DNA of 64,000 nucleotides from Acidobacteriota bacterium. GTDB lineage: Bacteria > Pseudomonadota > Gammaproteobacteria > Burkholderiales > Burkholderiaceae_C. Shown one piece after another: positions 1-19,276 of the stretch. The notes beneath the pieces were generated by a model. The model did no database searches and was not told the DNA's origin. It saw nothing but the letters and a program-made list of their open reading frames with translations. How positions within the stretch are numbered: position 1 is the first letter of the stretch; the number at the start of each line of letters is the position of its first letter. The stretch lies in the NCBI GenBank assembly GCA_050259275.1, contig JBLNAI010000011.1, positions 1,151-65,150 on the forward strand. The letters are read 5' to 3'. The position numbers were made by a program, and so were the translations under genes.

Positions 1-786
1 GAACCAGCCTGACGCCGTGGGGGCCGCGCCCGCGATCACGCCTGCGCAATGCGTGCCGTGCCCTTTGTCGTCGCGCCACCATTCGAAGGGGTCTTGGCCG
101 TCGAGGGTGTTGAATCCTCCGGCCACGGCCACGCTGCCGCCACATGGGTCGACGCCTGAGTCGATCACGGCAACCTTGACACCGGCCCCCGCCATGCCGG
201 TGCGAGCCCAGAACTCGCTGGTGCCCAGCAGGGCGTGAATCCAGGCGCTGTCACGGCCCGGCATCAACGGCCGCAAGGTCACGGCGAGTTGATCGATCCA
301 CTGATCTTGCTCGGGGCGTGTCAGCACACGCGACCAATGGGTGTGTCGCGGTGAAATGATCACCTGCTCCAATGCCTGCTCGCGAACCACGATGCGGGCC
401 AGGCCGTCCGCATCGGTGTGGGCCCTGTAGCCGACCCCTGCAGCCAGCGCGTAGATCGAACAATCGGCCACCCCCTGGCCGTTTGAATCGACGACCTGAA
501 TGCACACTTCACGCGTCGCGGCTTGCGCGTCGACCATGGGTGGCAGCCCGGGCATGCCCAGCAGGCACAGAGGCTGGTCCTCTTCGATCGGGACATCGGT
601 GTGCCGATGGCGAAAGGCCTCGATCTCGTCGTCGGCCATTTCAACCACCTGGCGACGGGGGCTTGATCGATGGGGTGAGGCAAGCGCTGCCGGCCGCCTG
701 GGCGCAAAGTCTCGCAGCACTTTCAACGGTGCCTGGCCCGGTGGAGCCGCAGCCGGCTGGCTGATCAGGACCCGGCGGGTGGTCAT
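1..786 (-). CDS. S8 (subtilisin-like) serine peptidase, 3' part outside the window; no signal peptide
   Basis: Missing from the ORF track because it is edge-truncated. Manual translation from the ATG at 786 gives MTTRRVLISQP...GAGVKVAVIDSGVD...DDKGHGTHCAGVIAG, open to base 1. Catalytic Asp (VAVIDSG) and His (HGTHCAG) motifs are present; the Ser motif is off-window. Confidence 0.9.
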   Translation of the reverse strand, partial: MTTRRVLISQPAAAPPGQAPLKVLRDFAPRRPAALASPHRSSPRRQVVEMADDEIEAFRHRHTDVPIEEDQPLCLLGMPGLPPMVDAQAATREVCIQVVDSNGQGVADCSIYALAAGVGYRAHTDADGLARIVVREQALEQVIISPRHTHWSRVLTRPEQDQWIDQLAVTLRPLMPGRDSAWIHALLGTSEFWARTGMAGAGVKVAVIDSGVDPCGGSVAVAGGFNTLDGQDPFEWWRDDKGHGTHCAGVIAGAAPTASGWF

Positions 787-806
787 GGCTGTGGCACCCC
801 GCCCTG

Positions 807-1604
807 TCAACCGTATTGCACGCCCAGCGCCTGCAGGCGTTGTATGAGGGCGCTGTCTGGTATCGAGGCTTCAGCGGGGCCGATGAACAGGGTGCTGGCA
901 GCTGACAGATCGATGTGGTGCAGGTAACCCAGGGCCACGGGTGTCAGGCGCGGCTTGCAGCCAAAGTGCACCGCGGCCTCGTACACGATGGCCTGGTGAC
1001 CCAAGGGATAGCGGGTGCCCAGCTTCTCGATCAGGAAGGGCATCAGCGGCGTCGGATACCGGCCCTCTGATCGGTAGTGCCCATTGCCCAGGATGCCGAT
1101 CTGCCACAGCACCAGCGCGCTGGCTGGGTCCATGGCCCGGTTGTTGAAGAGAAAGTCGGTCGCCTCATAAGACAGGCAGCCGGTGGCGGCCGGGTCGATG
1201 CAGATATCGGCAAACAGACAGTCTTCGGCAGACACACCGGGCAGCATCACCGCGCTGTAGCCTTCGGCCCGAGCCCGTTTGATCGACTCATGCGAGGGAT
1301 AGACGAACACGCCGGGGTGACCGTAGAACACCGCACAGACGCGTTCGCCAGCGCGCACGCAGGCCAGCACGCGTTCGACCATGGCCTCGTAGGTGGCCAG
1401 TCGGTCCTGGCCCTCGCCATACAGAACCTGCAGCGACTCGGCGGTGTCGTTCAGGTCGTGGATGGCACGCTCCGCCACCGGATCGCCGACCACGTACAGC
1501 ACCCGATCGGCTGCGCGGATCCAGGCGATCGACTCGGTGGTCATCTGCCCGACCGTCCGCAGACCGGTGCCCACCACCACCAATTGACCCTTGTTGGCGC
1601 TCAT
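807..1604 (-). CDS. Borosin-type peptide backbone alpha-N-methyltransferase (split borosin NMT, SonM/OphMA-like; TP_methylase fold)
   Basis: Motifs GQLVVVGTG, LYGEGQDRLATYEAMV, FYGHPGVF, LPGVSAEDCLFAD, SYEATDF, LWQIG and IVYEAA. Y62/R68/Y72/Y94 match the spacing of OphMA Y66/R72/Y76/Y98. Confidence 0.9.
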   Translation of the reverse strand: MSANKGQLVVVGTGLRTVGQMTTESIAWIRAADRVLYVVGDPVAERAIHDLNDTAESLQVLYGEGQDRLATYEAMVERVLACVRAGERVCAVFYGHPGVFVYPSHESIKRARAEGYSAVMLPGVSAEDCLFADICIDPAATGCLSYEATDFLFNNRAMDPASALVLWQIGILGNGHYRSEGRYPTPLMPFLIEKLGTRYPLGHQAIVYEAAVHFGCKPRLTPVALGYLHHIDLSAASTLFIGPAEASIPDSALIQRLQALGVQYG

Positions 1605-1873
1605 GGCGAGACTCCCTTCATCATGGCCTGCTCGATGGCCGCCGCTTCGCGAGAGGTCAGGGCTGCGATGTCCTCTTCCGACAAACCCTCTTGTGCAAAA
1701 AAGCCCATCGGATCCTTGATCAGTTGATACAGCAAATCGGTGTCCACACTGACGCGCGCAAGAAAGCGAGTGAGCGAGGCGGCTTCCTGCACCGAGGGCA
1801 CGGCGCTGGTGGCTGCCTGTGGGCGGGTGGCGGCGCTCCCGGCTTGATCAGGGGATGAGTCGTCTGAGGCCAT
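1601..1873 (-). CDS. Possible separately translated in-frame 90-aa BBD-like protein (internal start within the PRMT ORF)
   Basis: AAGGAG lies 8 nt upstream of an in-frame ATG (aaggagacttcgccATGgcc), giving MASDDSS...AMMKGVSP. Confidence 0.45.
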   Translation of the reverse strand: MASDDSSPDQAGSAATRPQAATSAVPSVQEAASLTRFLARVSVDTDLLYQLIKDPMGFFAQEGLSEEDIAALTSREAAAIEQAMMKGVSP

Positions 1874-2863
1874 GGCGAAGTCTCCTTGGAGGGTCGAAGA
1901 TCGGGGTGCTGGCTGGGGTGCCATGCCGGGTCCGACCCGGGTGTCGTGGGATTGCCAGGGGCCCTCGTCGACGCTGACCGCCCAGGCCAGATCGCTGAGC
2001 CCAGGTTCGCGGGGCAGGCATGCCACCCGTGCATGCAGGTGTGATGAGGCAGGCAGCGTCAGGGTGCTTCGCAAGGGCAAGGTGAGCTGGCCCCAGTGGG
2101 TCTCTGGGTCCCAGGGTGCGTTGCGCAAGGTCACCGAAGGCGACAGCTCGGCCTCGAACCAGGCAACCAGCGCATTGGCACGGCCATCGCGCTCGATCTG
2201 AAAGTCCATGTCGGCCTCGAAGGGCGCCAGGGCGCAAGTCAGATCGTCGGTGCGGGTGTCGGTGGTCCACATCAGCTGTGGTGCGCTGATCAGGTCTTGT
2301 TCTCGAACCTGATAGCGTCGGCACAGCAGATCGTGTACCGATGCCTCGCTCAAGCCCGCCAGGTCCAGGCCCAGCCGGTTGTCGCGCAGGTAATCCAGGT
2401 CGCACTGGGTGGCCAGATGAGCGGGCGCGGCCCAGGCCTTGACCACTGAAGGAACCATGATGCCGCCGGGTTTGAGCCAGCGGTCCCGGGCGAGCAGGAC
2501 CGGGTAGAGCAGGTTTTCGTCGACCCCGATCGTGCCCAGCCACTCCGACACGATCAGGTCCACTTGCTCGGGCAAGCGGACGTGCTGCATGTCCGCTTCG
2601 ATCACCTGCACGACATGCCCGACACCATTGCGCTGAGTCAGCTCTCTCGCCAGACGGGCTACGGGCGTGCGCTCCACCGCGTACACCCGCGTCGCGCCCG
2701 CCTTGGCGGCCAACAGACTCAGCACACCGCTGCCGGCGCCCACATCGAGCACCACGCAACCCGGTTGTACCCATTCACGCAGCGCCGCCTCAAAGGCCTG
2801 CATGCGCGGCCCGTCGCGCAGCATCCAGCGGTGCACATCCAAAGTCTCGTAGGGCAATGTCAT
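1601..2863 (-). CDS. Protein arginine methyltransferase (PRMT)-like enzyme with a C-terminal borosin-binding-domain-like module
   Basis: Motifs HRWMLRD, VLDVGAGSG (SAM motif I), VYAVE, the double-E loop DLIVSEWLGTIGVDE, RDRWLKPGG and the THW loop PETHWGQ. The C-terminus LTRFL..DTDLL..DP..GLSEEDIAAL resembles a BBD/LigA helical bundle. ATG at 2863 has AGAAGG upstream; the stop overlaps the NMT start (ATGA). Confidence 0.8.
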   Translation of the reverse strand: MTLPYETLDVHRWMLRDGPRMQAFEAALREWVQPGCVVLDVGAGSGVLSLLAAKAGATRVYAVERTPVARLARELTQRNGVGHVVQVIEADMQHVRLPEQVDLIVSEWLGTIGVDENLLYPVLLARDRWLKPGGIMVPSVVKAWAAPAHLATQCDLDYLRDNRLGLDLAGLSEASVHDLLCRRYQVREQDLISAPQLMWTTDTRTDDLTCALAPFEADMDFQIERDGRANALVAWFEAELSPSVTLRNAPWDPETHWGQLTLPLRSTLTLPASSHLHARVACLPREPGLSDLAWAVSVDEGPWQSHDTRVGPGMAPQPAPRSSTLQGDFAMASDDSSPDQAGSAATRPQAATSAVPSVQEAASLTRFLARVSVDTDLLYQLIKDPMGFFAQEGLSEEDIAALTSREAAAIEQAMMKGVSP

Positions 2864-2886
2864 GGATGAAAACCTTCTGCGCGAGT

Positions 2887-3561
2887 TCAATAGAACAGTG
2901 GGGGCCTGATCAGCGGTGGGCGAACCAGCAGGGGCGGGCGCACCAGCAAAGGGGGGCGCACCAACAGCGGTGGGCGGATCAAGGGCGGCCGGATCAGCGG
3001 GGGCCTGACCAGCAGCGGCGGCCGGATCAACGGTGGGCGCACCAGCAGAGGTGGGCGGATCAAGGGAGGGCGCACCAACAGAGGCGGACGAATCAGCGGG
3101 GGGCGCACCAGCAAGGGCGGGCGAATCAACGGAGGACGCACCAGCAGCGGCGGCCGGATCAGCGGTGGCCGAATCAGTGGGGGCGGTGGCGGGACGGGGT
3201 TGGGGTAGCCGCCGAAGCTGTCGTCATAGCTGCTGTAGTAGCCGCTACCGTAGCCGTAGGGGTCGCTCCAGCCGGCATAGGGGTCCTGTGCCTGACCGTA
3301 GGGGTCGGCATAGCCGCTGTAATCGGCGCCATATCCGGCACCCCAGTCGGCTTCCTGGCCCCCTTGGCCACCTTGGCCATAGGGGTCGCCACCGCCACTG
3401 TAGTCATAGCCGGCCTGCGCGTAAGGATCGGCGCCATAGGGGTCGGCATAGGCAGCATAGGGGTCGCTGTACTGCGATGCGTCATAGCCTTCGTAACCCG
3501 TGGGAGCGGCGTTGTAGGGGTCGCTGTACGGGTCGTAGCCATAGGGGTCGTAGTGAGACAT
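2887..3561 (-). CDS. Repetitive 224-aa putative RiPP precursor/substrate (acidic DPY block plus PPLIR/PPLLVR repeats)
   Basis: SD GAAAGGA lies 7 nt upstream of the ATG at 3561 (MSHYDPY). It is the first gene of the operon, and the repeats use varied synonymous codons. An upstream ATG at 3693 lacks a clear SD. Confidence 0.8.
   Translation of the reverse strand: MSHYDPYGYDPYSDPYNAAPTGYEGYDASQYSDPYAAYADPYGADPYAQAGYDYSGGGDPYGQGGQGGQEADWGAGYGADYSGYADPYGQAQDPYAGWSDPYGYGSGYYSSYDDSFGGYPNPVPPPPPLIRPPLIRPPLLVRPPLIRPPLLVRPPLIRPPLLVRPPLIRPPLLVRPPLIRPPLLVRPPLIRPPLIRPPLLVRPPLLVRPPLLVRPPLIRPPLFY
2890..3192 (-). repeat. Coding tandem repeat: 9x PPLIR and 8x PPLLVR, ending PPLFY
   Basis: Counted directly from the translation. 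The 15- and 18-bp units differ at third codon positions. Confidence 0.95.
3193..3561 (-). repeat. Low-complexity coding block with 10 DPY motifs (26 Tyr, 16 Asp, 2 Glu, no Lys/Arg in 123 aa)
   Basis: Counted directly from the translation. Confidence 0.9.
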
Positions 3562-3887
3562 GTCCATATCCTTTCGTGCACCATGGGTTGGGGGCGTCCT
3601 TTGGTCACGACGGGCGGATTCACGCTGACTTGGGCCGGGCCCTGAGCCTGCGCCCGGGTCCTTGGCCTTCTTCCTGGATTTCGATGTCGTCATGAGGCAC
3701 AGTCCAGATTGCGGAGAATCTGCCGGCCTGCAACATTCCTGACTGGCTACTACCCGTTGCAGTGTCGTCCGGACGATGATGCGGCGCGAATTCCGCCATC
3801 CGCAATCCCTAGCTTGTTGGCGGTTCTGTCATCCGTTTGACGCGCTGTCGCGTTGTAGGTCTGTGTCCCCTACCTGGCAGCAGGCTC

Positions 3888-4202
3888 ATGAACCGCCATA
3901 CCGAACAACAGTTGTTGAATTTCTGCGTCGCTCAACACGGTCGCTTCAATCCCGAAGCGTGGCAGAACCTCGAAGGGGTGGCCCCCGAGCAAAAGGCGTG
4001 CGCGATGCTGCTGCTGGCCAACGCCCGCTGGTACGGTCGGCTGTCCGAGTTGCGCGATCTGATCAGCCAATCACTGCCCAATCAGGGCGGCAATCCGGCC
4101 AGCCGGCTGAGCGAGTTGTCAGCGCGTGCTGGCTTCAATGGCGCGCGGTTCGTTAAACGTTTGCAAAACCTGTTGTGGCTAAGCACCGAGCCCAAGCGTT
4201 GA
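3888..4202 (+). CDS. Hypothetical protein (104 aa), divergent from the methyltransferase operon
   Basis: ATG at 3888 (MNRHTEQQLLNF...) fills the gap with protein-like composition; no family recognised. Confidence 0.6.
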   Translation: MNRHTEQQLLNFCVAQHGRFNPEAWQNLEGVAPEQKACAMLLLANARWYGRLSELRDLISQSLPNQGGNPASRLSELSARAGFNGARFVKRLQNLLWLSTEPKR

Positions 4203-4205
4203 GAG

Positions 4206-4240
4206 TTATCCCCGTGATCTGTGGATAACCTTGTTGGAAA
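4206..4240. promoter_or_regulatory. DnaA-box-like cluster
   Basis: TGTGGATAA at 4220-4228 is the exact reverse complement of TTATCCACA. An inverted degenerate TTATCCCCG lies at 4206-4214 and a weaker TGTTGGAAA at 4232-4240. Confidence 0.45.
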
Positions 4241-4423
4241 CTAGGGGGGAAGTGGCATTCTCCCTGGGTGGCGGCTTGCAGTGCTCCAAAATGCAGCAGG
4301 TTCATGACCACATCGGCTCCGGCAGCCCCCTGAAATGCCGGGACTATCTGTAGTGGAGGTGTCCAAAACTATGGGTAAGCTTGCAGGCTGGCCATTCTTC
4401 CCCGCCTGATTTCTGAGGACACA

Positions 4424-5386
4424 TTGACCGTTCCCCTTGCATTTTGGTTGACATTGCGCGCACTGGTTTTGAGCCTGCTGCTGGGCGCATGGCCATTTGC
4501 ACGCGCTTTTGCCGACGAGATGCCTCGCAACATCGCGGTGATCTATCCCGAGATCGGTGAGCCCTATCGATCGGTGTTCACCTCCATCATGGATGGGATC
4601 GAAGAACAGGCCAAAGGGCGCGTGACCGCGATCGCGGTGGGCGCCAATCCCAATACACAGGACATCGCCGGTGAACTGCACCGTCGCGACGTGCGCGCGG
4701 TCATTGCTTTGGGTCGCAATGGTTTGAAAGTGGCAACGGCGCTGGACCGGCAGTGGGGCGTGGTGGCTGGCGGGGTGCTGTCGGTGCCTGAATCGCAGGC
4801 GCGCGATTTCTCCGTTCACAGCCTGGCGCCCGACCCGGCTTTGCTGCTGGCCCGGCTCAAGACCCTGGTGCCGTCCGCGCGCCGCGTGATCGTCGTGTAT
4901 GACCCGCGCCAAAACGACTGGTTGATCCGATTGGCTCAAGAGGCGGCCAAATCGCAGGGGCTGGAGTTGTCCGCCTACGAGGCGCAAGACCTCAAGGGCG
5001 CGGTTCATCAATACCGTGAGGCGATGCAGGCCGCCGATCCCAAGAAGGACGTGTTGTGGTTGCCCCAGGACTCCACCACGGTGGACGATGCGGTGGTGCT
5101 GCCCATGGTTCTCGAAGACAGCTGGACGCGTGGACTGCCGGTGTTCTCCAGCAGCGTCAATCATGTCAAGCGCGGCGTGCTGTTCTCACTTTATCCCGAC
5201 AACGCTGAACTGGGGCGCGTGCTGGGCCGGGCCGCCCTGGGCTATGCCAATGGCGGCGCCTCGCAGCGGGGCGTGTGGCCCTTGAAGGAAGTCTTGCTGG
5301 CCGTGAACACGCGGACAGCCAATCACCTGGGCCTGAACCTGGATGCCCGGCGGTTGAGAGTTGACATGGTTTATCCGGAGCCTTGA
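4424..5386 (+). CDS. Periplasmic ABC-type substrate-binding-like protein (ABC_sub_bind family) associated with a sensor kinase
   Basis: Signal peptide ending ARAFA, motifs [40 protein letters not shown] precedes the TTG start. Confidence 0.75.
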
Positions 5387-7434
5387 TGTTGGACCAAACA
5401 CAAAAAATGCTCCAGGGCCGACGACGAAGCCGCCTATGGGGCCAGCAGATGACGTTCAGGCGGCAGTTGAGTCTGGCTGTGGCCTTGGGCGTGCTGTGCC
5501 TGGCTTTGCTGTCCTCGCTGACCAGTGCCTGGCAAGGCAACCGGCAGATCTTTGACACCTTGCAGCAGCAGGGTCTGCGCGTTGCCTCGAGCATGGCCAC
5601 CCAGAGCGCGCTGGCCTTGCTGGCCGGTGCCCCTGAGAACGCGGACAACGCCGTGCGCGCCACCTTGTCCTTCCCCGATGTGTTGCGGGTCGAAATCTGC
5701 AATGCCGACGGCGGGGTGCTGATGGCCCGTGGCACAGCCGGCCTGGAAGTGACGGGCTTGCCCATGCCTCGGCCCTTGCCCCACGACGCCTTCCTGGAGC
5801 GAGAAACCGAAGACACCTGGCAATTTGTGGCGCCCGTCTGGATTCAGCCGGAGGCCTCGCCGTTCGAAGTCGTCGCCCCCAAGGAAAGCTACCTGGGATA
5901 TGTCCGCGTGGTGCACAGCAAGGCGACCTTGCAGCGCATGGCCACGCATGTGTTCTTTGCCAACTTGCTGATCTCGTTTTCGTTTGCGACCGTGTTCCTG
6001 CTGGTGATCCGGTGGCTGGCCGTGCGCTTGACGCAGCCCTTGAAAGACCTCTCGGGGGTGATGGCCCGCGCCGAGCGCGGCGAGGTGCAGGTGCGTGCGG
6101 AGGTCGAAGGCCCGCAAGACATCGCCGCCATGGCGCAGGCCTTCAATCGCATGATCTCGGCGCTGCAGGAGCGGGGCCAGGAGCTTCAGCGGCATCAGGA
6201 ACATCTGGAAGACGTGGTGCGGGAGCGCACCGGTGAGCTGCGAGACGCCAAAGACCGGGCCGAGGTGGCCAATCAGGCCAAAAGCACCTTCCTGGCCCGC
6301 ATGAGCCACGAACTGCGCACGCCGTTGAACGCCATCATGGGCTATGCCCAGTTGCTCAAGATTGGCGACGCACTGACTGAGCGCCAGAGCGTGGGCCTCA
6401 ATACCATCTACAACAGCGGTGAACATCTGCTGCTCCTGATCAACGACATCCTGGACCTGTCCAGCATCGAGGCCGGCAAGTTCCAGTTGTTCCCCCATCC
6501 CGTGCCCTCGGGCGACTTCTTCCGGGGCATTGCCGACATCATCCGCATCAAGTCGGACGAAAAGGGTGTCGGGTTCGAGTTGCAGATTGCACCTGATGTG
6601 CCAGCGGTGCTGAACATCGACGAAAAACGCTTGCGGCAGGTGCTGCTCAATCTGTTGAGCAATGCCGTCAAATTCACGCCCAAGGGGCGAGTGCGCCTGG
6701 GTGTCAGCAGCATGGGCCGGTCACCGCGCGGCGTGTATCGCCTGCGTTTTGAGGTGCAGGACACCGGCGTCGGGCTGGCGCCTGAAGATCTGGAGCGCAT
6801 CTTCGAGCCCTTCGAGCAGGCTGGCGATGGCAGCAGTCGAGCAGCGGGGACCGGCCTGGGGCTGGCCATCACCAGTCAACTGGTGCGCATGATGGGCAGC
6901 GAGATCAAGGTCGAAAGCCAGTTGGGATCGGGCAGCCTGTTCTGGTTTGATCTGCGCGTGTCGACGTCGGCGGATGCCTCTGCCGATCTGACCGAGCAGG
7001 CCGACGACACCATGGCCGCCGTGACCGGCTATGAAGGTCCGCGCCGCCAGATCCTGGTGGTCGACGATGTCTCGGCCAACCGCACGATGCTGGCGGACCT
7101 GTTGACTCCCCTCGGATTTGACGTGCGCCAGGCTTGTGATGGCCTGGACGCCCTGGCCCAGGTGCGCGATGTGGTGCCCGACCTGATCGTGATGGACGTG
7201 GTCATGCCCGAAATGGATGGCCTGACGGCGATGGCGCACCTGCGTCGCGACCCGGCACATGCCGCCATCCCCGTGATCGCCTTGTCCGCCAATGCGTCTC
7301 TGGTGGACCGGGATCGTGCCCTGGCGGCCGGCGCGGACGTCTTCATGCCCAAGCCGCTGGAGCGCGACCTGCTGTTGATGCAAATCGGCCGCTGTCTGGG
7401 CCTGGCCTGGCTGCGAGAAGAAGCCCCCCAGTGA
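5386..7434 (+). CDS. Hybrid sensor histidine kinase (2 TM, HAMP, HisKA, HATPase, REC)
   Basis: H box [17 protein letters not shown] box [11 protein letters not shown] boxes DTGVG and GTGLGL, receiver ILVVDD...MDVVMP...FMPKP. Coupled to the upstream gene by TGATG. Confidence 0.95.
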
Positions 7435-11568: not shown

Positions 11569-14124
11569 ATGACTTCCATGAGGAAACCGAACAGTCGGAT
11601 AGTGGGTGGGCTGCTTTTGGCGGCGGGGCTGATGGTAGCCGCCATGCCGCAGGCGCACGCCACTTCAGTCGCCGCAGGGCGCTACACGATCCACATCGCG
11701 CACAGCGACAAATGCGTCACCGTGCCCGGCGGCAGCCTGTCGGACAGCATTCAGCTGCAGCAGTCCACTTGCGGCACCGCTGCTTACCAGCAATGGGATG
11801 TGGTCGCCACGGACAGCGGGTATTACAAAGTCATCAACGTCAACAGCGGCAAGGCCATTGATTTGCGCAACGGGTCCGGCTCGGATGGCGCCGCGATACA
11901 GCAGTACACCTGGACCGGAAGCAGCAACCAGCAGTTTCTATTTCAGAGCAATGGCGACGGCTATGTGCTGCGCAGCCGCACTTCGGGCAAATGCGTCGAC
12001 CAACAGAATTCGTCGTCGGCCGATGGCGGTGTGTTGCAGCAAATGGGCTGCAACGGTGGCTTGAACCAGACCTATGTGTTGACGCCCACTTCGTCGGCCA
12101 ACATCACGGTGGCCAGTGGCCGCTACACGGTCACCAACCTGAACAGCAGCAAGTGTCTGGATGTGCCGAATTCGAGCACCTCAGACAGCGTTCAGTTGCA
12201 GCAATACACCTGCAATGGCACGGCCGCTCAGCAGTACGACTTCGTCTATGTGGGCAACAGCCTGTATGAGGTCGTCAACGCCAACAGTGGCAAGTGCGTG
12301 GATGTGCGCGGTGGCAGCACGGCCAATGGCACGGCGGTTCAGCAGTACACCTGCAACCACTCCAGCTCCCAGCGCTTTTACGCCACCGGCGTGGGTGACG
12401 GCACGTTCTGGCTGAAGGCGGCAGTCAATGGGGCCAGCCCGGTCGAGATCGCCGCCGCATCCACTGCGGACAGCGCCAAGGCCCAGATCTGGAGCAACAC
12501 CGGCGGGGCCAACCAGAAGTGGAAGCTCGGCGCGGTGGCTTATGGGGCCAACATCGCCGATGGCACCTACACCATCAAGGTGGTGGACAGCGGCAAGTGC
12601 TTCGATGTGCCCAGCAGCAACGTCAACCCGGGTATCCAGCTGCAAGAGTACGGCTGCAACTCGACCACGGCACAGCAGTTCGTGGTCACGCATCAGGCCG
12701 ACGGGTATTACAAGATCGTCAACGTCAACAGCGGACTGGGCTTGTCGGTGCGCGACTTCTCGGCCACCAGTGGCGCGGCCATCGAGCAGCAAAACCAGTA
12801 CTCGGGCGACAACCAGTTGTTCCGATTCGTGGCCTATGGCTCGGGTTACCTGATCCGTCCGAAGTCGACTTACATGTGCTTCGACGCCAATCGGGGCTCA
12901 TCGTATGGCATGTTGAATCAATACATCTGCAATTACGGCAACAACCAGGTGTTCCAGTTCACCAAGGTGTCGTCGGGCACCACCTATGGCACGGGTGCCG
13001 CACGCAACACGGACACCATCGTGTTGATCCATGGCTTCTCGGGCTGGGGTCGCGGCGAGCTCTTCGGCCTGAAGTACTGGGGCGGCGGCTGGGATGGCAA
13101 GGGTGACTTGCAGGAGTACCTGAAGTCCCAGGGCTATAACGTGGTGACTGTGGCCGTGGGCCCGATCAGCTCGAACTGGGACCGTGCCGTGGAGGCCTAC
13201 TACCAGCTCAAGGGCGGATGCGTGGACTACGGGGCCTCCCACTCGTCCACCTATGGTCACAAGGAAGCGGGCCGTTGCTACAACGCACTGCTGACCAACT
13301 GGGACGATACCCACAAGATCCACATCATTGCCCACAGCCAGGGTGGTCAGACCGCCCGCGTGCTGCTAAAGTTGCTGCGCGATGGCAAGGCCGGTGAGGG
13401 CACCGCCCCGATCTTCCAGGGCGGCAAGAACTGGATCCGCAGCATCACCACGCTGAGCACGCCTCACGATGGCACGACGCTGACGGCATTCGTCAACCCG
13501 CTGGGCATCACCGAGAAGATCGTGACGGCGGCCTATCGTCTGGGCGGTCTGGTCAGTGGCGATAACGCGGTCTATGACCTCAAGCTGGATCAGTGGTCCT
13601 TGACCCGCAATGCGGGCGAGTCCTGGTACGACTACAACCAGCGCGTCACCAACAACGCGACCTGGAAGAACTCGCTGGACAACAGCCTGTACGACCTGAG
13701 CCCGGACGGCGCGCCCTCCATCTATGGCGGCAATGCGGTCTACCCGGATGTGTATTACTTCAGTGTGACAACCAAGTCGACCTACAAGGGCTTCTGGGAC
13801 GGAAAGCAACACGCCTTGCTCAGTACTTTCACGCCCTTCATCCCGCAGTCTGAGTACATGGGGCAGTACACCCGCAACGAAGCCGGTCACGCGGTGATCG
13901 ACAGCAGTTGGTGGGGCAATGACTGCGTGGTCAACTCGCGCAGCATGCAGGGCCCGGCCGGGGCGCCCAAACAGGCCTACAACGGCACGCCCGTGCCCGG
14001 CGTGTGGCAGAACCTGGGCACCTGGGATGGCTGGGATCACCTCGACATCGTGGGCCTGTTCACCCTCAAGGACGCCAGCAGCTTCTTCGTGAACCACGCC
14101 AAGCTGCTCTACTGGCTCAACTGA
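11569..14124 (+). CDS. Secreted lipase with three N-terminal ricin-B (RICIN/CBM13) lectin domains and a Geobacillus/Staphylococcus-type (family I.5/I.6-like) lipase domain
   Basis: Signal peptide ending AHA. Three repeats start G[RT]YT..KC..VP with QxW/QxF motifs. Lipase motifs IVLIHGFSGWGR, IIAHSQGGQT, TTLSTPHDGT, DCVVNSRSM, WDHLDIVG. Confidence 0.88.
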   Translation: MTSMRKPNSRIVGGLLLAAGLMVAAMPQAHATSVAAGRYTIHIAHSDKCVTVPGGSLSDSIQLQQSTCGTAAYQQWDVVATDSGYYKVINVNSGKAIDLRNGSGSDGAAIQQYTWTGSSNQQFLFQSNGDGYVLRSRTSGKCVDQQNSSSADGGVLQQMGCNGGLNQTYVLTPTSSANITVASGRYTVTNLNSSKCLDVPNSSTSDSVQLQQYTCNGTAAQQYDFVYVGNSLYEVVNANSGKCVDVRGGSTANGTAVQQYTCNHSSSQRFYATGVGDGTFWLKAAVNGASPVEIAAASTADSAKAQIWSNTGGANQKWKLGAVAYGANIADGTYTIKVVDSGKCFDVPSSNVNPGIQLQEYGCNSTTAQQFVVTHQADGYYKIVNVNSGLGLSVRDFSATSGAAIEQQNQYSGDNQLFRFVAYGSGYLIRPKSTYMCFDANRGSSYGMLNQYICNYGNNQVFQFTKVSSGTTYGTGAARNTDTIVLIHGFSGWGRGELFGLKYWGGGWDGKGDLQEYLKSQGYNVVTVAVGPISSNWDRAVEAYYQLKGGCVDYGASHSSTYGHKEAGRCYNALLTNWDDTHKIHIIAHSQGGQTARVLLKLLRDGKAGEGTAPIFQGGKNWIRSITTLSTPHDGTTLTAFVNPLGITEKIVTAAYRLGGLVSGDNAVYDLKLDQWSLTRNAGESWYDYNQRVTNNATWKNSLDNSLYDLSPDGAPSIYGGNAVYPDVYYFSVTTKSTYKGFWDGKQHALLSTFTPFIPQSEYMGQYTRNEAGHAVIDSSWWGNDCVVNSRSMQGPAGAPKQAYNGTPVPGVWQNLGTWDGWDHLDIVGLFTLKDASSFFVNHAKLLYWLN

Positions 14125-17347: not shown

Positions 17348-19276
17348 ATGTTTTCTTTTCGTCGTGCTTGGCTGGTTTGGGCCCTGTTGGTGCCCGCTTT
17401 GGCGGGGGCCGCGCCGGGAGCGCGTGTCATTGTCAAACTCAAGGCTGATTCCAGCCTGTTGACGGACAGCTCGTACGCCCAGCCGCAGTCCCTGGGCTCG
17501 TCTGGGGCCAGCAGCGGCTCGGCGCGCATGCAGCGCCTGGGCCTCAAAATGGGCCTTACCTTGCGGGACGGGCGCCAATTGGGGCCGCGCGTGCACGTGG
17601 CCCAGGCCCAGGGTGTCAGCTCCGAAGTGCTTGCTGCCCGTCTGGCGGCTCAACCGGATGTCGAATACGCCGTGGTGGACCAGTTGCGCCAGCGCAAGGC
17701 CATCCCCAATGACCCGTTCTTTGGCAGCCCGGCTTCTTTGCCAGCCGGGCAGTGGTACCTCAAAACGCCCTCGGAAACCGTACCTACCGCTGCGATCAAT
17801 GCCGTCGAGGCTTGGGATCTTACCTATGGCTCTCCGTCTGTCGCTGTGGCCGTGCTAGACACCGGTGTGCGGCAGGACAACCGGGATTTTGCCGGCAAGT
17901 TTCTGGCTGGCTACAACATGATCGCCGACCCCGTGCGGGCCGGTAACAGCGTGGGGCGCTCCACCGATCCGTCCGACCTGGGTGACTGGCTGACGCAGGC
18001 CGAAATCACGGCCAATCCGGGCAGCTACCCGTCGGGCCAATGCAAGGAAGACCTGACCAGCTCCTGGCATGGCATGGAAGTGGCCGGGGTCGTCGGTGCC
18101 GCCACCAACAATGCCATCGGCATGGCGGGTGTGGGCGGCAACACCACCATCATTCCTGTGCGGGTGCTGGGCAAGTGCGGCGGGTATGACTCGGACATCA
18201 TCGCGGGCATGCGCTGGGCGGCAGGCTTGCCGGTGACCGGCGTGTCAACGCCGCCACCGCAGGTCGCCCGTGTCATCAACCTGAGTCTCGGCTCGGCCGG
18301 TGTGTGTCACGCCGCCTACCAGGATGCGATCACCGAAGTGGTGGCGTCCGGTGTCGTGGTGGTCGCCTCTGCGGGGAACGAAGCCAAAGGAGTCGATACC
18401 CCGGGCAATTGCAATGGCGTGATCGCGGTGGGCGCGTTGCGCCACCTGGGCACCAAGACGAACTATTCGGCCACGGGGCCCCAGATCACCATCAGTGCGC
18501 CGGGCGGCAACTGCGTCAACACGACCGGGCCATGCCTGTATCCCATCCTGTCGGCTTCCAATTCGGGAACACAGACGCCGGTCGCCGACGCGGACGGCGG
18601 CTCCGTTTATGTGGGGGGCGCAGGCACCAGCTTTTCGGCGCCCATGGTCAGCGGCACCGTGGCCTTGATGCTGGCCAAGCGGCCCAGTTTGACGCCCGAC
18701 GCCGTCAGGCGAATCTTGATGAGTTCAGCCCGCGCCTTTCCGACCTCGGGCGTGAGCACGGCGACGGGCAACTGTCAGGCACCGACCGATAGCGCGCAGG
18801 GCGAGTGCTACTGCACCACTTCGACTTGCGGTGCGGGCATGCTGGACGCGTCGGCCGCGGTGGCGAAGGCCGCCTCAGACGGGGTCGCCAGTGTGGCGGT
18901 GACGCCGGCGAACCCGACTCCGGCTGACACCATCGTACTGAGCGGCGCGGGGTCGCTGTCCAGCGTGCTCGCCACCCATGTGACCAGCTACCACTGGGAG
19001 CTGATCGATGGCGGGGGCATCGTCTCGTCCTTGACCGGCGACGTGGACACCGTGTCCGTGTCGGCCCATGCCAGCGCGCCGGGGCGCTTTACCGTGAAGC
19101 TGACCATCACGGACGATCAGGGCGTGACCGCATCGACCACCCAGGTCGTGATCGTTGAGTCGCCCCCGTCGAGCGGCGGAGGAGGGGGCGGCGCGCTGGA
19201 TGGCCTCACCCTGCTCCTGGGACTGCTGTGGGCGGGGTGGCAATGGCCCCGTCGCATGCGGCAAGGCCACGCCTGA
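17348..19276 (+). CDS. Secreted S8 subtilase with a PKD-like domain and a GlyGly-CTERM sorting signal
   Basis: Signal peptide, catalytic triad VAVLDTG / WHGMEVAG / GTSFSAP, C-terminal SGGGGGGALDGLTLLLGLLWAGWQWPRRMR. Confidence 0.92.
   Translation: MFSFRRAWLVWALLVPALAGAAPGARVIVKLKADSSLLTDSSYAQPQSLGSSGASSGSARMQRLGLKMGLTLRDGRQLGPRVHVAQAQGVSSEVLAARLAAQPDVEYAVVDQLRQRKAIPNDPFFGSPASLPAGQWYLKTPSETVPTAAINAVEAWDLTYGSPSVAVAVLDTGVRQDNRDFAGKFLAGYNMIADPVRAGNSVGRSTDPSDLGDWLTQAEITANPGSYPSGQCKEDLTSSWHGMEVAGVVGAATNNAIGMAGVGGNTTIIPVRVLGKCGGYDSDIIAGMRWAAGLPVTGVSTPPPQVARVINLSLGSAGVCHAAYQDAITEVVASGVVVVASAGNEAKGVDTPGNCNGVIAVGALRHLGTKTNYSATGPQITISAPGGNCVNTTGPCLYPILSASNSGTQTPVADADGGSVYVGGAGTSFSAPMVSGTVALMLAKRPSLTPDAVRRILMSSARAFPTSGVSTATGNCQAPTDSAQGECYCTTSTCGAGMLDASAAVAKAASDGVASVAVTPANPTPADTIVLSGAGSLSSVLATHVTSYHWELIDGGGIVSSLTGDVDTVSVSAHASAPGRFTVKLTITDDQGVTASTTQVVIVESPPSSGGGGGGALDGLTLLLGLLWAGWQWPRRMRQGHA

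Follow-up and report, generated by a model that had tools for sequence, protein, structure and literature searches.

Split borosin systems are grouped into types IV–X, and type 0 enzymes are described beside them (bioRxiv 10.1101/2021.12.24.474128; bioRxiv 10.1101/2024.01.09.574750). In type V, represented by RceM/RceA of Rhodospirillum centenum, a multi-core precursor that lacks a borosin binding domain (BBD) is methylated (bioRxiv 10.1101/2021.12.24.474128), and the RODEO borosin study mentions once, as an unusual architecture, the fusion of a BBD to a GNAT (bioRxiv 10.1101/2024.01.09.574750). Neither of these two studies mentions arginine or a protein arginine methyltransferase (PRMT); bacterial PRMT-like enzymes in operons for peptide secondary metabolites appear in a 2012 review by Aravind and co-workers (PMC3417536). 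The locus analyzed here lies in the window, our term for the whole 64,000-nt stretch of DNA under study (G000:C11:1151-65150), and consists of four co-oriented genes on its minus strand, which encode, in this order, a Pro/Arg repeat protein, a PRMT that ends in a BBD, a borosin alpha-N-methyltransferase (NMT), and an S8 protease. We put a probability of roughly 0.6 on the reading that these genes form an operon of the type that makes peptides synthesized ribosomally and then modified post-translationally (RiPPs), in which the repeat protein would be a multi-core precursor methylated on its backbone and its arginines by the NMT and the PRMT-BBD. The repeat protein is most likely such a precursor because a gene boundary between the two methyltransferases moves in related loci, because YcaO-type clusters use precursors of the same family, and because its repeat units differ by synonymous changes only.

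The window encodes a RecJ that shares 83-89% identity with RecJ of Aquabacterium, and we therefore regard the host as Aquabacterium-like (Burkholderiales). The operon in this bacterium is conserved across loci and apparently undescribed. The repeat gene and the PRMT gene are separated by 23 nt, the PRMT stop and the NMT start overlap as ATGA, and 20 nt lie between the NMT and subtilase genes. The cluster is 470 bp from the contig end, and the complete subtilase gene (L001:470-1960, 488-496 aa) begins inside the window and continues beyond it. In window positions, the features are as follows.

2890-3561 (stop 2887-2889), minus strand: repeat protein gene, 224 aa, begins MSHYDPY
3184..3561, minus strand: repeat protein N-terminal half, aa 1-126, acidic, with abundant Tyr, Asp, Gly and Pro
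2890..3183, minus strand: repeat protein C-terminal half, aa 127-224, putative multi-core region
1604-2863, minus strand: PRMT and BBD gene, 420 aa
1934..2863, minus strand: PRMT catalytic domain and beta-barrel, aa 1-310, with PRMT2/6/8/1 and PF22528 matches
1793..1933, minus strand: Pro/Ala/Ser-rich linker, about aa 311-357, disordered
1604..1792, minus strand: borosin binding domain, aa 358-420, five-helix bundle
810-1604, minus strand: NMT gene, 265 aa, stand-alone borosin alpha-N-methyltransferase
1-786, minus strand: 5' portion of the gene for the S8 subtilase, whose remainder lies before the window at G000:C11:470-1150

The NMT carries the features expected of a borosin enzyme. It matches PF00590 at 2e-16 and, over its full length, dbOphM (3e-56), OphMA (~5e-54), and SonM (1e-52). 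In an ungapped alignment to dbOphM, its R68, Y72, and Y94 stand opposite residues 72, 76, and 98, which correspond to R72/Y76/Y98 of OphMA, named in PDB titles as the mutated catalytic residues of OphA. The enzyme also contains YGHP and DCLFAD, the motifs by which borosin NMTs are defined (bioRxiv 10.1101/2021.12.24.474128), and is 61-97% identical to the NMTs of related loci. The window NMT itself has no BBD, and the 99.99% complete genome encodes no second borosin NMT.

The genome has a single BBD, located instead at the C-terminus of the PRMT. A phmmer search of the PDB with the single tail missed SonA; a profile built from eight tails recovered SonA (3.8e-5, across about its first 50 residues) and, weakly, the BBD region of OphMA. 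AlphaFold2 (AF2) modeling of the full PRMT-BBD from a 40-sequence alignment places five helices at residues 358-414 with a predicted local distance difference test (pLDDT) score of 88-96, and the same five helices appear when the tail is modeled by itself. The 45 best Foldseek matches of the tail model in the PDB are all chains of SonA or the BBDs of OphMA, dbOphMA, and MroMA, with target-normalized template modeling (TM) scores of 0.81-0.87 and a root-mean-square deviation of ~1 Å. Since only ~6 residues follow helix 5 before the protein ends, the PRMT-borne BBD has no core peptide behind it. The end motif AMM(K/Q/R)G-x-x-P is shared by closer relatives and lost in distant members.

The remainder of the protein has the makeup of a type I PRMT: Rossmann S-adenosylmethionine (SAM) motifs, the double-E and THW loops, and a beta-barrel bearing a dimerization arm. 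Residues 14-308 match PRMT2/6/8/1 at ~1e-33, and PF22528 matches as well. Motif I (VLDVGAGSG), E64, the double-E glutamates E107/E116, and T255-H256-W257 of the THW loop are invariant across 40 homologues. The AF2 model (whole-model pLDDT 85) extends the PRMT domain to residue 307, mostly at pLDDT >90, and is followed by the linker, in which pLDDT falls below 50 at 314-348 and whose sequence and length differ among homologues. Every NMT-type precursor has one Arg per repeat unit, and Arg recurs (7-9%) in the YcaO-type cores described below; taken with the complete motifs, the regular placement of one Arg per unit suggests that the PRMT would methylate the guanidino groups of the repeats to MMA or ADMA.

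The repeat protein is divided into halves of opposite charge. Residues 1-126 include 26 Tyr, 24 Gly, 16 Asp, and 16 Pro, with 10 DPY motifs and no basic residues (Lys, Arg), for a charge of -18; this YDPYG-rich half is likely a spacer or pro-region. Residues 127-224 contain nine PPLIR and eight PPLLVR units, all 17 terminated by Arg, and close with a final PPLFY; the net charge is +17, and Cys, Ser, and Thr are absent from this core. The 17 units encode just these two peptide sequences, yet every one of the 17 is distinct in DNA through synonymous differences only, with a mean pairwise DNA identity of 0.78-0.81 and matches of merely 66-80% in Tandem Repeats Finder. Because the DNA of the units is everywhere different while the peptide is constant, purifying selection has acted on the units, and the array did not arise by a recent expansion of DNA. 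No Pfam or NCBIfam model matches the repeat protein or the leader of its family, and a homologue search with the protein returned only two low-coverage matches, for which its composition is to blame. The longest open reading frame (ORF) of the repeat gene extends 44 residues beyond MSHYDPY (window 3562-3693, minus strand) into sequence unlike the conserved leader seen elsewhere. We favor the start at 3561 because an AAGGA Shine-Dalgarno sequence lies at 3573-3569, 7 nt upstream of that ATG; the MSHYDPY start also agrees with homologues. A plus-strand ORF opposite the repeat gene (2857-3645, 262 aa) was considered and rejected as a gene: it mirrors the GC-rich repeat DNA and is an artefact.

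The four ORFs had been proposed in a preliminary description made from the letters of this DNA, and its observations on the architecture stand. The genes have the positions, strand, and spacings it gave; the count of 17 Arg-terminated units in a 224-aa protein is exact; the PRMT-like enzyme has a complete set of type I motifs; the BBD-like module at its end is, by profile, model, and Foldseek, a coreless five-helix domain of the SonA fold; and the borosin NMT has its catalytic Arg/Tyr/Tyr and both defining motifs.

Our comparison covers the window and 14 further NMT-type loci (15 in total), which are few and mutually related. A single PRMT-BBD sequence searched against genome contigs found no related loci, and an alignment used as the query did retrieve them. 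The named metagenome-assembled genomes (MAGs) among them are assigned to Burkholderiales, Nitrosospira, Reyranellaceae, Allosphingosinicella, Paracoccaceae, and Acidobacteriota; Beta- and Alphaproteobacteria are thus represented as well as Acidobacteriota. In 15/15 loci, the genes for the repeat protein, PRMT, BBD, and NMT lie side by side in one orientation, the PRMTs are 43-84% identical, and each of the 15 repeat proteins combines a YDPY-rich acidic part with RPP-(aliphatic)2-4 repeats. The preliminary description had named NMT/PRMT-BBD loci lacking a repeat ORF as a finding that would speak against it, and none is present among the 15. The PRMT-BBD fusion is also found in ~40 clusters of metagenome relatives at 40-82% identity; a search of 200 family genomes and of 400 from the phylum (species representatives) turned up no other fusion. 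The PRMT-BBD system is thus rare and is found mostly in MAGs and metagenomes.

In some relatives the gene boundary has moved. In a tree of the PRMTs, five that lack the tail are nested within the fusion proteins. The loci of two of these five, L187:4464-9079 and L188:3382-7739, have the gene order S8, repeat protein, tail-less PRMT, and an NMT of ~350 aa. The N-terminus of the L187 NMT is a BBD (hhalign probability 96.9%, E 1.7e-10; this identification was made for L187), joined to the NMT domain by a linker of ~35 residues. The order PRMT-BBD-NMT in the DNA is therefore constant, and only the position of the stop and start shifts. These observations support the notion that the BBD is best seen as an accessory of the NMT, with fusion to the PRMT probably tying both enzymes together as a side effect. 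Other genes were observed at these and related loci. A gamma-glutamyl transpeptidase gene lies beside the S8 gene in both L187 and L188, with a radical SAM gene nearby in L187 and a P450 gene in L188, and an extra class I SAM methyltransferase (NodS-/UbiE-like) directly follows the NMT at L011:7319-7975 (minus strand) and L016:5521-6333 (plus strand).

A second set of loci connects the repeat protein to RiPP biosynthesis. Three Acidobacteriota clusters of the thiazole/oxazole-modified microcin (TOMM) type, built around YcaO, end in a plain PRMT (L031:625-5948, L033:1461-5948, and L189:541-7954) that is 47-49% identical to the window PRMT. L031 and L189 also encode an S8 protease 42-46% identical to the one in the window, none being seen in L033, and L033 additionally encodes a TOMM leader-binding protein and a SagB dehydrogenase. 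The precursors of these clusters share with many NMT-type repeat proteins a leader of ~30 residues, with a consensus of approximately (H/Y)-V-Y-x-V-N-x-x-T-x-Q-V-x-K-V-E-E-I-D-P-x-T-G-E-R-K-E-I-P-M, and a YDPY/GY spacer comes next. The cores differ between the two types. In all 15 NMT-type cores Cys is at 0% and Thr reaches no more than 4%, and aliphatic or aromatic residues make up 34-51%; cores of the YcaO type contain 13-19% Cys or, in L031, 22% Thr, in units such as PPC-R/N/L/F and IPTLPR-I/V-T/C. Pro, Arg, and the PRMT are constant in both types, and no YcaO gene is present among the window cluster genes. That core composition tracks the enzyme is the strongest argument that the repeats would be the substrate, with the NMT acting on the aliphatic residues and the PRMT on Arg, and we offer it as an argument rather than a statistic because the loci are few and related. 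L031, L033, and L189 look like a separate, undescribed group of PRMT-containing RiPPs.

Taken together, these data suggest how the system may operate. The acidic YDPYG half would mask, neutralize, or present the cationic 17-unit tail. The NMT would require a BBD, and the genome's sole BBD is held at the PRMT C-terminus behind a flexible linker of ~45 residues; because the NMT would need a BBD and the only one is on the PRMT, docking of the PRMT-BBD on the NMT is expected. In such a complex the BBD would dock to the NMT dimer in the way that SonA binds SonM, bringing both methyltransferases together. The NMT could then methylate the backbone amides of Leu, Ile, and Val between Pro-Pro and Arg, possibly that of Arg too, the PRMT would methylate each unit's terminal Arg on its guanidino group, and the S8 protease, where present, would cut off the acidic half.

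The protease is the least constant element. It matches PF00082 (Peptidase_S8) at 1.3e-43, the full ORF has the triad motifs VIDSGVD, GHGTHCAG, and GTSMASP, and the N-terminal region of ~200 aa shows no evident signal peptide by eye. Orthologues 40-65% identical are encoded in L008, L015, L025, L027, L187, L188, L031, and L189; among the NMT-type loci, 7 of 15 encode the protease (the window, L008, L015, L025, L027, L187, and L188). The preliminary description was right about the identity of the subtilase, and the role in the pathway that it gave the enzyme is qualified by this patchy presence. Its proposal that many penta- or hexapeptides are released found no support. The repeat proteins have a conserved C-terminal cap, RPP(L/I)F-x, and in other loci a junction motif precedes the repeats (for example SPAFSLFP), features that fit a single polymer; release of one long repeat polymer may be at least as good a fit as many pentapeptides, an indication that we regard as weak. 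The tripartite layout it described, with the BBD on the PRMT and a separate BBD-less repeat protein, is correct for the window, and an obligatory three-part docking is contradicted by L187. Overall, its architecture and its assignment of the substrate are retained, and the obligatory docking and the pentapeptide release are not.

Several points weigh against the precursor reading. The tether between PRMT and NMT cannot be essential, because the BBD sits on the NMT in the close relative L187. The window protein lacks the conserved leader, as do the proteins of L008, L009, L016, and L055, and starts at or near the position of the leader's final Met; the leader appears to have been lost in the window's clade. 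No exporter or immunity gene is conserved among the loci, and the related loci are not independent samples. To our knowledge, no borosin substrate with a Pro-rich core has been described, and the specificity of the PRMT for Arg in a PP-hydrophobic-R context is putative.

These points leave room for other explanations, of which the one we weigh most heavily, though still consider improbable, is that the repeat protein is methylated but is a low-complexity protein of the cell, the modification tuning its assembly or interactions and the protease acting in optional turnover. Eukaryotic Tyr/Arg-rich proteins are tuned by Arg methylation. Such a role would account for the 8 of 15 NMT-type loci without an S8 gene, for the lack of any conserved signal peptide, exporter, or immunity gene, for halves that nearly balance in charge (-18 vs +17), and for the YDPY regions that flank the repeats on both sides in L026 and L031. 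What it does not account for is that classical TOMM clusters, equipped with a leader-binding protein, YcaO, and SagB, have precursors with this family's leader and spacer, which marks the family as RiPP precursors, or the RiPP-typical pairing of a hypervariable core with a conserved leader between loci. The YcaO clusters also bear on a less probable proposal, that the NMT's target is the C-terminus of the PRMT-BBD itself, in the manner of SonA or type 0 enzymes, and that the repeat protein is a substrate of the PRMT only. In all characterized BBD-bearing precursors and type 0 enzymes, the methylated core directly follows the BBD (bioRxiv 10.1101/2024.01.09.574750); the ~35-residue linker between BBD and NMT in L187 and the AMM(K/Q/R)G-x-x-P end conserved in closer relatives would fit this idea. 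However, only ~6 residues extend past helix 5, compared with ~15-20 in SonA, distant members do not keep the end motif, and the association of aliphatic cores with the NMT and of Cys/Thr cores with YcaO would be left unexplained, so we consider it rather unlikely.

That the genes are chance neighbors, or the repeat ORF a non-coding artefact of GC-rich DNA, is effectively refuted by the comparative data. The 262-aa frame open on the opposite strand at 2857-3645 and the failure of HMMER to find homologues of the repeat protein, which is owed to composition, might have suggested as much. The reading frame, the MS-H/Y-YDPY start, the RPPLF-x end, and the position of the gene are nevertheless kept in 15 loci across phyla, in this frame the units differ by nothing but synonymous changes, and the Shine-Dalgarno sequence is correctly spaced.

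If the reading as a multi-core precursor modified by both methyltransferases is correct, the locus would encode the first ribosomal peptide pathway with a PRMT-type enzyme and would offer a defined, testable substrate for bacterial PRMTs. Its borosin architecture would also be new, in that a second tailoring enzyme would bear the docking domain and Pro/Arg repeats would form the core, and the locus would represent a new route to heavily methylated ribosomal peptides in which the repeat protein is the probable shared substrate of both methylases. With the non-proline residues of PPLIR N-methylated, the peptides would be nearly free of amide NH groups, a property sought for protease stability and membrane permeation. 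More tentatively, and at odds well short of even, the loci may belong to an undescribed RiPP superfamily defined by a leader/YDPY-spacer/Pro-Arg multi-core precursor, a PRMT, and a dedicated S8 protease, into which either a borosin NMT with BBD or YcaO/SagB is plugged. The product of the NMT branch would then be a polyproline-like polymer of ~100 residues, possibly resembling a proline-rich antimicrobial peptide, in which tertiary amides, from Pro or N-methylation, would be in the majority and a methylarginine would occur at every fifth or sixth residue. Clusters that combine this precursor and PRMT, and in L031 and L189 the protease too, with YcaO in place of the NMT would amount to a natural experiment on the exchange of RiPP modules.

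The surroundings of the operon add a few observations. The same-genus genome G051 shows no synteny around the cluster, hence comparison gives no island borders. A small ORF of ~104-121 aa that diverges from the cluster (window 3837-4202, plus strand) is the sole clear G051 match within 3700-7400 (70% nucleotide identity). A multi-pass membrane protein is encoded in the same orientation by a gene that starts 57 nt past the S8 stop (G000:C11:3-413, minus strand) and exits the contig end; it was rejected as a member of the system, as it is not kept beside it in other loci. Farther away, the window encodes a large lipase with lectin-like repeats (11569-14124, plus strand) and a second S8 protease (17348-19276, plus strand), a mycosin-like protein of 642 aa unrelated to the cluster.

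In the searchable literature, which leaves subscription journals outside, we found no description of this layout, nor of a borosin paired with a PRMT, a RiPP with a PRMT, or YcaO with an arginine methyltransferase. The novelty that the preliminary description had suspected would concern the layout as a whole and not all of its parts, since a BBD-less multi-core precursor (RceA) and a fused BBD (BBD-GNAT) were already known. Among the closest systems is type IV SonM/SonA of Shewanella oneidensis (PDB 7LTC, 7LTE, and others), with which the window shares a stand-alone NMT of ~265 aa and a BBD on a separate polypeptide. In SonA a core follows the BBD, with ~15-20 residues from the BBD to the end; here a coreless BBD ends a 420-aa PRMT, and the likely core is the 17-unit repeat on a third protein, so that BBD and core do not share one peptide as in type IV. 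As in type V RceM/RceA, the putative precursor has multiple core repeats and lacks a BBD, which is found on an enzyme instead. In type V, however, the BBD lies within the NMT and the core is DVIELSSGGEL, with no Pro/Arg repeats, PRMT, or acidic YDPY half; with respect to types V-VIII as a group, the window has the BBD-less precursor and lacks the BBD-NMT fusion. The type 0 enzymes FpeAM and SkoAM have the domain order of the L187 NMT with its N-terminal BBD (the L188 NMT is likewise ~350 aa). They methylate their own inter-domain core, a segment that is absent here because the gene boundary falls between BBD and NMT, and the fusion partner here is a PRMT.

The PRMT, in turn, has the same full fold as the eukaryotic type I enzymes (PRMT1/2/6/8 and CARM1), including the SAM motifs, double-E, THW, and barrel/oligomerization subdomain. 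It differs from them in lacking the N-terminal YFxxY helix, in carrying a BBD, and in adjoining Pro/Arg repeats rather than RGG-type substrates. The TOMM clusters L031, L033, and L189, which also fall among linear azol(in)e-containing peptide (LAP) systems, have a homologous leader, spacer, Pro/Arg repeats, and PRMT, and differ in their class enzymes (YcaO, alone or accompanied by an E1-like protein and SagB) and their Cys/Thr-rich cores. Finally, the repeat protein presumably resembles the mammalian proline-rich antimicrobial peptide Bac5 in its cationic Pro-Pro-hydrophobic-Arg repeats and anionic pro-part, a likeness for which we claim no homology; compared with Bac5, the window protein is bacterial, far longer, and probably methylated.

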